A stretch of DNA of 64,000 nt from Vicinamibacterales bacterium (GTDB lineage Bacteria; Acidobacteriota; Vicinamibacteria; Vicinamibacterales; UBA2999), in NCBI GenBank assembly GCA_035575715.1, contig DATLXN010000045.1, forward strand, positions 74,523 to 138,522, given 5' to 3'. This document shows, in pieces, positions 20,167 through 22,846 of the stretch. The notes beneath the pieces are model-generated. The model worked only from the letters and a program-made list of their open reading frames with translations, was not told the DNA's origin and ran no database searches. Positions within the stretch are counted from its first letter, which is position 1; each line of letters starts with the position of its first letter. Position numbers and translations under genes: made by a program.

Positions 20167-21489
20167 ATGACCGCTCCTAAGCTGACTCCGGTGCAGTGGT
20201 TGATCTGCGCCATTGCCGCACTAGGCTTCGCGTTCGACATTTACGAAGTGCTGATGGCCCCCTTGATCGTCAGTCCGGCGATCGCCGAATTGACCGGCGC
20301 CCGTCCGGGGACGGCCGACTTCAATTACTGGGTGGGCTTGTTTTTCTGGGTGCCGGCCATTGTCGGGGGCGCCTTCGGGCTACTTGGCGGCTATTTGACC
20401 GACGTGTTCGGGCGGCGCCGCGTGCTGGTGTGGAGCATCCTGCTCTACGCATTTTCCGCAATGGCGGCGGGGTTTTCCACCAGCATTGAGATGCTGCTGA
20501 TTCTGCGGTCGACGACTTACATCGGCGTCTTCGTCGAATTTGTCGCTGCGGTCGCCTGGATCGCCGAACTGTTTCCTGATCCGAAGCAGCGCGAATCGGC
20601 ACTGGGATATACCCAGGCCTTTTCATCGATCGGCGGGTTGCTCGTCACGGGGGCGTACTACCTCGCAGTGACATACGCAGACAACTTCCCCGCCATCAAC
20701 GGGGCGCACTCGCCGTGGCGTTACACATTGATATCCGGCGTCATCCCGGCGCTGCCATTGATTTTCATTCGCCCGTTCCTGCCGGAGTCGCCGGCGTGGA
20801 TCCAGAAAAAAGCATCGGGCACATTGCGGCGTCCCAGCATTGCGGCGCTGTTCACGCCCGAACTTCGCCGCACGACGATCGTCACCACGATCCTGTTCGC
20901 GTGTGCCTATGGAGCGGCGTTCGGTGCGATCCAGCAGATGCCGCGTATCGTCCCCGGCCTGGCCGAAGTCCGGGCGCTGCCGGTCCCGCAGCAGCAACAA
21001 ACCGCGACTGCAGTGCAGGCGTATCAGGAAGTCGGCGGCCTGGTCGGGCGCTTCGTCCTCGCCTTCCTTGCGATTCGGATCATTTCGCGCCGGCGGTTGT
21101 TGCATGTCTTCCAGCTGCCCGGCATCTTCATCGTGCCGCTGGTGTTTTTTTACGCGGGGACGACCAGTCTCGAACTGGCGAAATGGGGGATGTTCTTCGC
21201 CGGACTGTTCACCGTGGCGCAGTTTTCGTTCTGGGGTAACTATCTGCCGCGCGTCTACCCGACTCACCTTCGCGGCACCGGCGAAGGCTTCGCCGCCAAC
21301 ATCGGCGGACGCATGCTCGGCACGGGGTTCGCCTTTGTGACGACGCAGTTGACCAACGTGGTGCCCGGACCGACGCCGCAAGTGCGCTTGGCCTATGCGG
21401 CGGCGGGCGTGGCGCTGTTCGTCTATGTCACCGGCTACATTGTCAGTTGGTGGCTGCCTGAACCCAAGAGCGACGCGCTGCCGGAGTAA
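20167..21489 (+). CDS. MFS transporter
   Basis: About 12 predicted TM helices. GGYLTDVFGRRRVL loop 2-3 motif. Confidence 0.85.
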   Translation: MTAPKLTPVQWLICAIAALGFAFDIYEVLMAPLIVSPAIAELTGARPGTADFNYWVGLFFWVPAIVGGAFGLLGGYLTDVFGRRRVLVWSILLYAFSAMAAGFSTSIEMLLILRSTTYIGVFVEFVAAVAWIAELFPDPKQRESALGYTQAFSSIGGLLVTGAYYLAVTYADNFPAINGAHSPWRYTLISGVIPALPLIFIRPFLPESPAWIQKKASGTLRRPSIAALFTPELRRTTIVTTILFACAYGAAFGAIQQMPRIVPGLAEVRALPVPQQQQTATAVQAYQEVGGLVGRFVLAFLAIRIISRRRLLHVFQLPGIFIVPLVFFYAGTTSLELAKWGMFFAGLFTVAQFSFWGNYLPRVYPTHLRGTGEGFAANIGGRMLGTGFAFVTTQLTNVVPGPTPQVRLAYAAAGVALFVYVTGYIVSWWLPEPKSDALPE

Positions 21490-21498
21490 ACCCTCGCG

Positions 21499-21834
21499 AT
21501 GGCCCAACCACCAACCGCTCCGAAGATGGCCAGCGATGACGTCATGACGCTGCTGGAGACGGGTGAAGTGTTTTTTCTCGATGTTCGTGAGCCGAAGGAA
21601 CTGGTGGAACTCGGTACGCTGGAGGGGTACATCAATATTCCACTGGGTCAACTCGAGGCCAGGCTCGCGGACATTCCCAAAGACAAGGCGATTATCACCG
21701 CTTGAAACGGCGGTGGACGCGCCGCGCGTGCCGCGGCGTTACTGGAAGGCCACGGCTACTCTGTTGTGGCCTTCTGCGGTCTCGGTGATTACGCAGGCAG
21801 GCAGGGCAAGGCGAAAATATTTCCCGGCCGCTAA
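21499..21834 (+). CDS. Single-domain rhodanese with in-frame TGA (21703..21705) at the catalytic-Cys position; candidate selenocysteine protein, alternatively a nonsense pseudogene
   Basis: VFFLDVREPKEL...GYINIPLGQL...KDKAIITA-TGA-NGGGRAARAAALLEGHGYSVVAFCGLGDY. The frame stays open to TAA 21832..21834. C-x-x-G-x-R loop with the TGA in the C slot. Confidence 0.6.
21720..21738 (+). other. Candidate bacterial SECIS hairpin
   Basis: CGCCGCG (21720..21726) / CGCGGCG (21732..21738), loop CGUGC. The stem starts 14 nt after the UGA and the loop 21 nt after it. Confidence 0.4.
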
Positions 21835-22193
21835 AGATCAGGCTGGCGATGTTGGTTTGGCGAAAAGGGCAAAGTCGCGGTCACTTACCGCGTGTCCGGC
21901 GCCGGCAATACCGTGATCGAAACATTCCCGGTCGGGACGCCGCATGAACAGGTCACCGTCTATCATCGTGACGGGTCGAACGTCGGCCTGACCCATTACT
22001 GCGTGTCGAACACCAGCCGCGCATGACCTCGGGCGGTCTGCAGTGCAACGTGCTGACCTTCGCGTATACCGGCGAGCTGGCCAAGACCAGCCACATGCAC
22101 GGCGCGCGGCTGGAGCCCGCAGGGCCCTCGACCCGCAGGGGCCTCTCGACCCGCAGGGGCCTCTCGACCCGCAGGGGCCTGGCACCGCTGTGA
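21835..22193 (+). pseudogene. Decayed gene remnant (no start codon, one frameshift, 3' end made of tandem repeats)
   Basis: Open frame right after the rhodanese TAA reads GEKGKVAVTYRVSGAGNTVIETFPVGTPHEQVTVYHRDGSNVGLTHYCVSN. It then needs a 1-nt correction near 22008..22011 to continue as HQPRMTSGGLQCNVLTFAYTGELAKTSHMHGARLEP. The tail is STRRGL x3, encoded by the 18-mer array. Confidence 0.4.
22116..22180. repeat. Tandem 18-bp array CCCGCAGGGGCCTCTCGA, about 3.6 copies
   Basis: Copies at 22116 (16-nt variant), 22132, 22150 and 22168 (partial). Contiguous with no spacers. Confidence 0.85.
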
Positions 22194-22846
22194 CACAAAG
22201 TTACAACTCGGTGTGACGGCGCAGGCATGAGGATTGCCGCACGAATCGCCACACTCATGCCGAGACGACCCAGAGACATTGTCGCCGGCGAGATTTATCA
22301 CGTGATCAATCGAGGCAACGATCGACGCGTCATTTTCTCGCAAGATGCAGATTACGAGCACTTTCTCGACTTGCTCGATCGAGGGTTCGAGCGCGCGGAC
22401 GTTTCCATCCTGGGGTTCTGTGCGATGCCCACGCACTTCCACCTGCTGGTGAGACCGGAGACCAACGATGCGCTTTCTACATACATGCACTGGGTCACTA
22501 GTCGCTACGCCTGCGACTTGCGGGCGAAGAACCAAACGACTGGGAACGGACACGTCTTTCAACGACGTTATTGGTCAAAAGAAATTGCCAGTGAGTCGCA
22601 GTTCTTGACCGTGCTCAGGTACATCGAGGCCAACGCCTTGCGCAGTGAGTTGGTCATGCGAGCGGAGGATTGGCGCTGGGGGAGCCTCGCGGATCGCGAG
22701 GGCGGCTGCCCAAGGCTGATCTGCCCAGCTCCCGTTGCCATCCCCAAAGAATGGGCGGCACTGGTCAATCTTCCCCAAGAGGAATTTCGGCTGCGGCTCA
22801 TTCGCCGCAGCGCAAATCTTGCGCGTCCGTTGTAACAAGTTGTCAC
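22190..22846 (+). mobile_element. Y1-transposase unit bracketed by 18-bp imperfect inverted repeats (RAYT/IS200-like)
   Basis: Left GTGACACAAAGTTACAAC (22190..22207). Right GTTGTAACAAGTTGTCAC (22829..22846), whose reverse complement is GTGACAACTTGTTACAAC. 14/18 identical, with all mismatches in the central 4 nt. Confidence 0.55.
22257..22835 (+). CDS. IS200/IS605-type Y1 (HUH) transposase, REP-associated tyrosine transposase-like
   Basis: MPRRPR...YHVINRGN N-terminus. HUH motif PTHFHLLV. Catalytic-Tyr helix LRYIEANALR. Start taken at ATG 22257. Confidence 0.8.
   Translation: MPRRPRDIVAGEIYHVINRGNDRRVIFSQDADYEHFLDLLDRGFERADVSILGFCAMPTHFHLLVRPETNDALSTYMHWVTSRYACDLRAKNQTTGNGHVFQRRYWSKEIASESQFLTVLRYIEANALRSELVMRAEDWRWGSLADREGGCPRLICPAPVAIPKEWAALVNLPQEEFRLRLIRRSANLARPL

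Follow-up and report, generated by a model that had tools for sequence, protein, structure and literature searches.

In a 64,000-nt stretch of DNA from a Vicinamibacterales bacterium (the window, to whose positions all coordinates refer), the gene of a single-domain rhodanese was analyzed that carries an in-frame TGA at the codon of the catalytic cysteine. Judged by comparison with related sequences, this gene (21499 to 21834, + strand) very probably belongs to a family of selenocysteine (Sec)-containing rhodaneses of Acidobacteriota. It is a further, mis-annotated member of an already catalogued type of selenoprotein, the UxxG rhodaneses, which have been known since 2005. A preliminary description of the window had proposed the gene as a candidate selenoprotein gene; this reading was supported by the presence of TGA in all 20 distinct orthologous DNAs, by selection on the sequence downstream of it, and by Cys at the same position in distant homologues.

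The open reading frame (ORF) that begins with the ATG at 21499 terminates as KDKAIITA-TGA, the TGA being located at 21703 to 21705 (+ strand). The 68 codons in front of it (21499 to 21702, + strand) form the N-terminal part of the rhodanese, which starts with MAQPPTAPKMASDD. Beyond the TGA, 42 further sense codons follow in this frame, starting with NGGGRAARAAALLEGHGYSVVAFCGLGDY and reading NGGGRAARAAALLEGHGYSVVAFCGLGDYAGRQGKAKIFPGR, until the true stop codon TAA at 21832 to 21834 is reached (C-terminal part with stop, 21706 to 21834, + strand). The product joined across the TGA comprises 111 codons. With U replaced by C, it matched the Pfam family Rhodanese (PF00581) over residues 13 to 88 with 46.1 bits (cutoff 22.2; E=7e-12). 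Every coordinate given for this gene in the preliminary description, including the 42-codon extension, was right. Its placement of the TGA in the slot of the catalytic Cys was borne out by a structure-database search, in which the TGA column fell on the catalytic Cys of the solved rhodanese domains 3icr (ITCQLGMRG) and 5ve3 (VTVCRAGGRS). The active-site loop would accordingly be read as U-N-G-G-G-R, i.e. six residues closing in Arg (C-X4-R type) with the predicted Sec in the Cys slot. In the public annotation, the gene is represented by a protein of 68 amino acids (HXG90415.1) that ends at the TGA.

A protein search yielded 692 homologues, and all figures on protein homologues refer to the best 120 of these. 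Among these best 120 of 692, 84 were 81-92% identical and terminated at IITA, i.e. at the residue before the TGA. Another 35 were full-length proteins of 107-155 residues with approximately 52-60% identity, and these carried Cys at the TGA column. TGC at the aligned codon was verified in the DNA of four Cys forms (loci L028, L029, L034, and L035). The column alignment called for in the preliminary description thus gave TGA in close relatives and Cys in more distant homologues. Two further products, P0132 and P0134 (cluster of P0096), represent the same gene in mis-called form: in one of them the tail is frameshifted, and the other bears a long, spurious extension at its N-terminus.

Orthologous DNA was obtained from 22 loci, comprising 5 species-representative genomes and 17 informative metagenome loci and corresponding to 20 distinct sequences. 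Four of the five genome loci were labelled Acidobacteriota or Vicinamibacterales, or were syntenic with the window; the fifth originated from Candidatus Versatilivorator of the class Terriglobia and was 57% identical. Overall, the sources were metagenome-assembled genomes (MAGs) of Vicinamibacterales and other Acidobacteriota, soil and lake metagenomes, and the one Terriglobia genome. TGA was present at the codon in question in 22/22 loci (20/20 distinct DNAs), and TAA, TAG, TGC, or TGT in none. In every orthologue the frame was open for 42-52 codons past the TGA, and the sequence of this part was highly conserved. The possibility raised earlier that close relatives might carry TGC, or further disruptions downstream of the TGA, was not borne out in any of these DNAs.

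Proportions of nonsynonymous (pN) and synonymous (pS) differences were summed over pairs of sequences of the Sec clade, the distant L005 being left out. For the 59 codons upstream of the TGA, pS was 0.55 and pN/pS 0.14; for the 33 codons downstream, pS was 0.47 and pN/pS 0.19, with synonymous sites near saturation. This substitution pattern indicates that the region behind the TGA is translated in the rhodanese frame and is under purifying selection. Conservation of the TGA, at least two homologues with an aligned Cys, and conservation at the protein level downstream, by which selenoproteins were recognized previously (PMC1088965), were thus all found for this family.

The SECIS (selenocysteine insertion sequence) of Escherichia coli fdhF is the archetype of such elements in bacteria. 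A SECIS-like hairpin follows the TGA of the window gene, with an 8-bp stem (21719-21726 / 21732-21739) and the loop CGUGC at 21727-21731 (21719 to 21739, + strand). The perfect 7-bp stem described before (CGCCGCG 21720-26 / CGCGGCG 21732-38) was located as given, together with its loop, and one more pair could be added to it, which gives 8 bp and an energy of -14.3 kcal/mol. The 7-bp stem begins 14 nt past the TGA, and the spacing between TGA and loop is 21 nt (21706-21726). The bacterial SECIS model comprises a loop of 3-9 nt on an upper stem of 4-16 bp, a G in loop position 1 or 2 that is usually followed by G or U, a distance of 16-37 nt between UGA and loop, and a minimum free energy of -7.5 kcal/mol or lower (PMC13188914). 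The window hairpin agrees with all four constraints (5-nt loop on an 8-bp stem, G-U in positions 2-3 of the loop, 21 nt, -14.3 kcal/mol), and the compatibility of its geometry with bacterial SECIS elements, as proposed earlier, was therefore confirmed. Within the window, a perfect hairpin of at least 7 bp in SECIS geometry was found after 21 of 1867 TGA triplets (1.1%).

The hairpin resembles the bSECISearch consensus in being a stem-loop of the coding region directly 3' of the UGA, with a small apical loop and a stable GC stem. It differs from it in that the stem is largely set by Ala codons, in that the frequent N1-N2 closing pair of the loop is absent (the loop ends are C and C), and in that the stem is kept in two Cys forms.

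Using RNAalifold on the 20 orthologues, the window hairpin was recovered as an 8-bp helix. Paired cells amounted to 96% across the family, compared with 33-66% in controls with a slid 3' arm, and 0/500 column shuffles reached the observed pairing or covariation. Double changes that preserve pairing were found at three stem pairs (C-G to G-C, C-G to U-A, and G-C to C-G), all of which join third codon positions. In the second stem type, the rare Ala codons GCT and GCA (7% and 10% usage) pair with each other. The loop C-G-U-G-C was invariant in 20/20 sequences, and its Arg codon CGT (13% usage) was fixed in 19/19 sequences; a stem mismatch (G-A) occurred in one sequence. Hence, covariation of the hairpin, which the preliminary description had suggested examining, was found in the form of the three compensatory pairs and the shuffling result. 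It is qualified by the single lineage split behind it, by pairs forced by Ala codons, and by the occurrence of the stem in two Cys forms.

These qualifications belong to a set of observations that weigh against the gene being a selenoprotein gene with a functional SECIS. The stem is situated on codons for R-A-A-R-A-A-A-L, and at 4 of the 6 inner pairs the GC of Ala codons dictates the pairing. When synonymous codons were sampled according to window usage, the inner six pairs arose by chance in 17% of cases. The covariation represents essentially one split between a type-A and a type-B lineage. The same stem is retained in the Cys forms L028 and L034 (GGGRAARAA loop), so that it is not exclusive to Sec forms. 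In the minimum-energy fold of the single window sequence, another register within the GC-rich stretch was chosen (z-score -1.66). An Rfam search found no SECIS family, whether the whole window was screened at gathering thresholds or the stretch 21600-21850 at E up to 10. In tblastn searches with E. coli SelA, SelB, and SelD, no matches were obtained within the 263 kb made up by the window and all fetched loci. Given the 17% chance and the z-score of -1.66, only the comparison with relatives makes the hairpin convincing, and as the stem is kept in L028 and L034, the hairpin alone is no proof of SECIS function.

A second hairpin (21695-21702 / 21709-21716; 21695 to 21716, + strand), with the UGA in a 6-nt loop, was indicated by folding and by RNAalifold. 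It was 97.5% paired among the orthologues, without covariation, and variants break its pairs. Synonymous sites from codon -5 to +3 around the UGA were near invariant and include the rare codons GCT and GGT. This conserved candidate structure would possibly present the UGA.

In a rough neighbour-joining tree, the Cys forms L028 and L034 grouped with the Terriglobia Sec form, within a clade that also holds the Vicinamibacterales Sec forms. This topology would fit Sec/Cys switching inside the clade, the hairpin of these Cys forms then being a fossil or a pre-existing feature.

The remaining points against the selenoprotein reading concern the window copy itself. The gene order TonB-type outer-membrane receptor, major facilitator superfamily (MFS) transporter, rhodanese, and alpha/beta hydrolase is conserved with L001, L003, and L004; the window gene is therefore a syntenic orthologue. 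By inspection, a signal peptide (MRRL..AALLLLP..AMAQ) is encoded at the N-terminus, behind a GGAGG site, in all orthologues except the window copy and L023. At the corresponding place (21487 to 21498, + strand), the orthologues have a spacer of approximately 90 nt or more, the GGAGG ribosome-binding site, and the region coding for the signal peptide; in the window, the stop codon TAA of the MFS gene (21487-89) lies in the rhodanese frame only 9 nt before the ATG. This ATG corresponds to the M of the signal-peptidase site A-M-A|Q of the orthologues, so that the window protein starts at the mature N-terminus. From this alignment, a deletion removed the leader and the ribosome-binding site in the window lineage, with the junction at 21487-21498.

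The family may accordingly consist of genuine selenoproteins while the window copy, after loss of leader and ribosome-binding site by this deletion, has become non-functional and is drifting into a pseudogene. We regard this as possible though rather unlikely. Decay of the copy would be in line with the loss of its signal peptide and strong ribosome-binding site, and with the state of the surrounding DNA, where the downstream neighbour (intact in L003) is 5'-truncated and frameshifted and insertions of an IS200-like transposase gene and of a tandem repeat are present. For the leaderless lineage, nonsynonymous distances to the clade averaged 0.14-0.15 compared to 0.06-0.10 for the others, i.e. 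they were about twofold higher. Its G+C content at third codon positions (GC3) was 0.65-0.67 (21499-21831) and thereby lower than in the genes picked out in the window (0.73-0.83) and in the L001 orthologue (0.79-0.84). Against decay, neither the frame nor the UGA nor the perfect 8-bp hairpin is disrupted, and the leaderless architecture persists in the metagenome contig L023 (product P0121), which is 97% identical to the window. The rhodanese genes of the window and L023 differ by 7 synonymous and 8 nonsynonymous changes, giving a pN/pS of 0.38 compared to 0-0.24 for neighbouring genes. This ratio was not significantly different from that of the neighbours (Fisher p=0.38) and leans below neutrality, from which its separation is marginal (p=0.054). 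Furthermore, the location of the ATG exactly at the mature N-terminus and a possible translational coupling to the MFS gene speak against decay. By these data, the window copy would either be a cytoplasmic version whose translation is coupled to that of the MFS gene, or be at an early stage of decay. The earlier caveat of simple pseudogenisation was thus wrong with respect to the TGA, which is fixed in the family, and is partly apt for the window copy, given the loss of its signal peptide and its location in a decaying region.

Recoding of the UGA with an amino acid other than Sec was considered as well: insertion of Cys by a tRNA-Sec-like tRNA(Cys) together with a SelB paralogue, suppression by an allo-tRNA acting on opal codons, or near-cognate read-through. 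Both tRNA(Cys) that mimics tRNA-Sec and acidobacterial allo-tRNAs, which are possible nonsense suppressors, have been reported (PMC5389517), and the 263 kb searched gave no Sec machinery. ARAGORN detected no tRNA genes in the window and 15 loci, and hence no tRNA-Sec within those stretches. However, the selC*/selB* systems were described from Deltaproteobacteria and other anaerobes, not from Acidobacteria, and in genomes that also have the full Sec machinery (PMC5389517). For an insertion of Cys, TGC would suffice without any cost, but the codon is invariably TGA in 20/20 sequences. A general suppressor would conflict with the use of TGA as stop codon by 13 of the 36 other genes that were confidently called in the window; the same count ruled out a reassignment of the TGA codon. 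Altogether, non-Sec recoding appears very improbable. Use of Sec is documented for some Acidobacteriota in the literature, which makes no mention of Vicinamibacterales (PMC1794560, PMC12013277). A GC3-based scan for coding ORFs split by TGA flagged the rhodanese orthologues in L001-L004, not the window copy; besides these orthologues, it returned only antisense shadows and adjacent genes in the same frame.

An ordinary nonsense-mutation pseudogene, or a TGA that acts as true stop and leaves a short N-terminal product only, would be in line with the 68-aa public annotation and the decaying region, but it is practically negligible for the window gene, and ruled out for the whole family by TGA conservation and downstream selection, because every orthologue from two Acidobacteriota classes has the same TGA and the open frame behind it shows purifying selection although synonymous divergence is near saturation. 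A rhodanese cut at the active-site loop would be devoid of its last strands and helices. There is no start codon after the TGA, and no overlapping gene was seen in another frame or strand.

The SelB/SECIS scheme of Sec insertion in bacteria is established knowledge, and a mechanism for the Sec-rhodanese gene can be proposed on this basis. When a ribosome arrives at the UGA (21703-05), the hairpin at 21719-21739, with its loop CGUGC exposing G-U 21 nt downstream of the UGA, would recruit SelB with GTP and Sec-tRNA(Sec). Sec would be inserted in place of termination, and translation would run on to the TAA at 21832-34. We infer Sec as the inserted amino acid from the position of the UGA at a catalytic Cys, the pairing of Sec and Cys homologues, and the SECIS-like element, and from the consideration that TGC would serve equally were Cys inserted; dependence on SelB is likewise predicted. 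In the orthologues, the signal peptide would be cleaved and the protein would act in the periplasm like PspE. Sulfur (or selenium) would be carried on Sec as a perselenide or selenenylsulfide. A second Cys, 24 residues past Sec in the motif FCGL (21775 to 21777, + strand), was identified in the alignments as candidate resolving cysteine and may act as such. It is conserved in Sec and Cys forms, and its codon was TGC or TGT in 19/19 sequences. This Cys occupies a region where rhodaneses usually have 'GG'.

Selenoproteins related to rhodanese sulfurtransferases had been predicted from metagenomes, namely from the Sargasso Sea in 2005 (PMC1088965) and from GOS (Global Ocean Sampling) data in 2008 (PMC2398784), which agrees with the preliminary description. 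A review of 2026 distinguishes five forms of rhodanese selenoproteins, two of which (forms 2 and 4) have UxxG in PF00581 (PMC13188914). These UxxG forms were predicted by Zhang and Gladyshev, with MBM9537886.1 and MCY3690685.1 as representatives (PMC13188914). The present family shares with forms 2 and 4 a single rhodanese domain, a Sec that replaces the catalytic Cys in U-x-x-G (here U-N-G-G), the existence of Cys-containing homologues, and a SECIS-like hairpin just 3' of the UGA. The window protein was placed there by motif and domain description, with form 2 and form 4 taken together. Compared to these forms, the present clade stems from Acidobacteriota of soil and lake water and has a signal peptide, which the window copy does not have, and a Cys 24 residues past Sec. 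Form 3 (CxU; NF041203, rhodanese_LYCAU) is also rhodanese-related, with a weak similarity in hidden Markov model searches (E=1e-5 to 1e-6). Membership in form 3 was ruled out by scores of 24.5-28.5 bits at a cutoff of 115 bits, and by the residues I-T-A before U, which leave no CxU.

PspE and GlpE of E. coli are single-domain Cys rhodaneses that act as thiosulfate sulfurtransferases, PspE being periplasmic. The family resembles both in its single rhodanese domain of approximately 100 residues and in the six-residue active-site loop that closes in Arg. With PspE it additionally shares the signal peptide of the orthologues, and the PspE structure 2jtq was matched at E=1e-5. Differences to PspE are Sec instead of Cys, a score of 27.7 with the NCBIfam PspE models (cutoff 102), and the replacement of the C-terminal 'GG..W' by 'CGL.DY'; a PspE-type signal peptide is absent from the window copy and L023.

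The clade might tentatively be regarded as a rhodanese selenoprotein form distinct from the five catalogued ones, although we consider this doubtful. Such a form would be periplasmic and PspE-like, with Sec and the downstream Cys as a selenenylsulfide redox pair and a SECIS built from A-A-R-A-A codons. Its hairpin, unchanged in the nested Cys forms, would record Sec/Cys switching, and the window lineage would be a recently relocated, leaderless cytoplasmic version.

The window gene and at least 84 related clusters (90% identity) from soil and freshwater metagenomes are cut at the same codon in public annotation. Since all of these are annotated only up to the TGA, a selenoprotein that would be common in soil Acidobacteriota has been missed, and the extent to which this abundant soil phylum uses selenium is probably under-counted. 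The family also offers a clean case of a putative SECIS hairpin carved from Ala and Arg codons, and its occurrence in close Cys-form relatives bears on the interconversion of Cys and Sec. The biological interest is otherwise modest, as no new mechanism is revealed.

Several Cys-form homologues (L029-L031, L035, and L036) are located directly 3' of a ThyX (Thy1) gene. A second, tandem rhodanese gene follows the Cys form in L029-L031 and L035, and the next genes in L029-L031 encode a bacterial-microcompartment shell protein and an aldehyde dehydrogenase. This context is quite unlike that of the Sec forms. Locus L002 (VFZG01000075.1, a contig shared with L012) is labelled as MAG of Acidimicrobiia, yet it is syntenic with the window over several genes at approximately 70-83% amino acid identity; from this synteny, the contig was probably mis-binned.

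Downstream of the rhodanese gene, the decay of the adjoining gene noted in the preliminary description was traced to a truncated and frameshifted remnant at 21838-22100. The intact counterpart in L003 (10324-10863) encodes a secreted protein of 179 residues without Pfam match. The remnant is devoid of approximately the first 55 codons and has a frameshift near 22020. It is followed at 22116-22180, just upstream of the transposase gene, by 3.7 copies of the 18-nt tandem repeat CCCGCAGGGGCCTCTCGA. L023 has approximately 40 nt (764-805) where the window has 309 nt (21855-22163), so that this stretch represents a recent indel. The IS200-like Y1 transposase gene (22227-22835, + strand; PF01797, E=2e-16) lies between the genes of the rhodanese and the alpha/beta hydrolase. 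The transposase gene is absent from this place in L001 and conserved in L023 with a pN/pS of 0.06; by this ratio, the transposase is probably active or domesticated.

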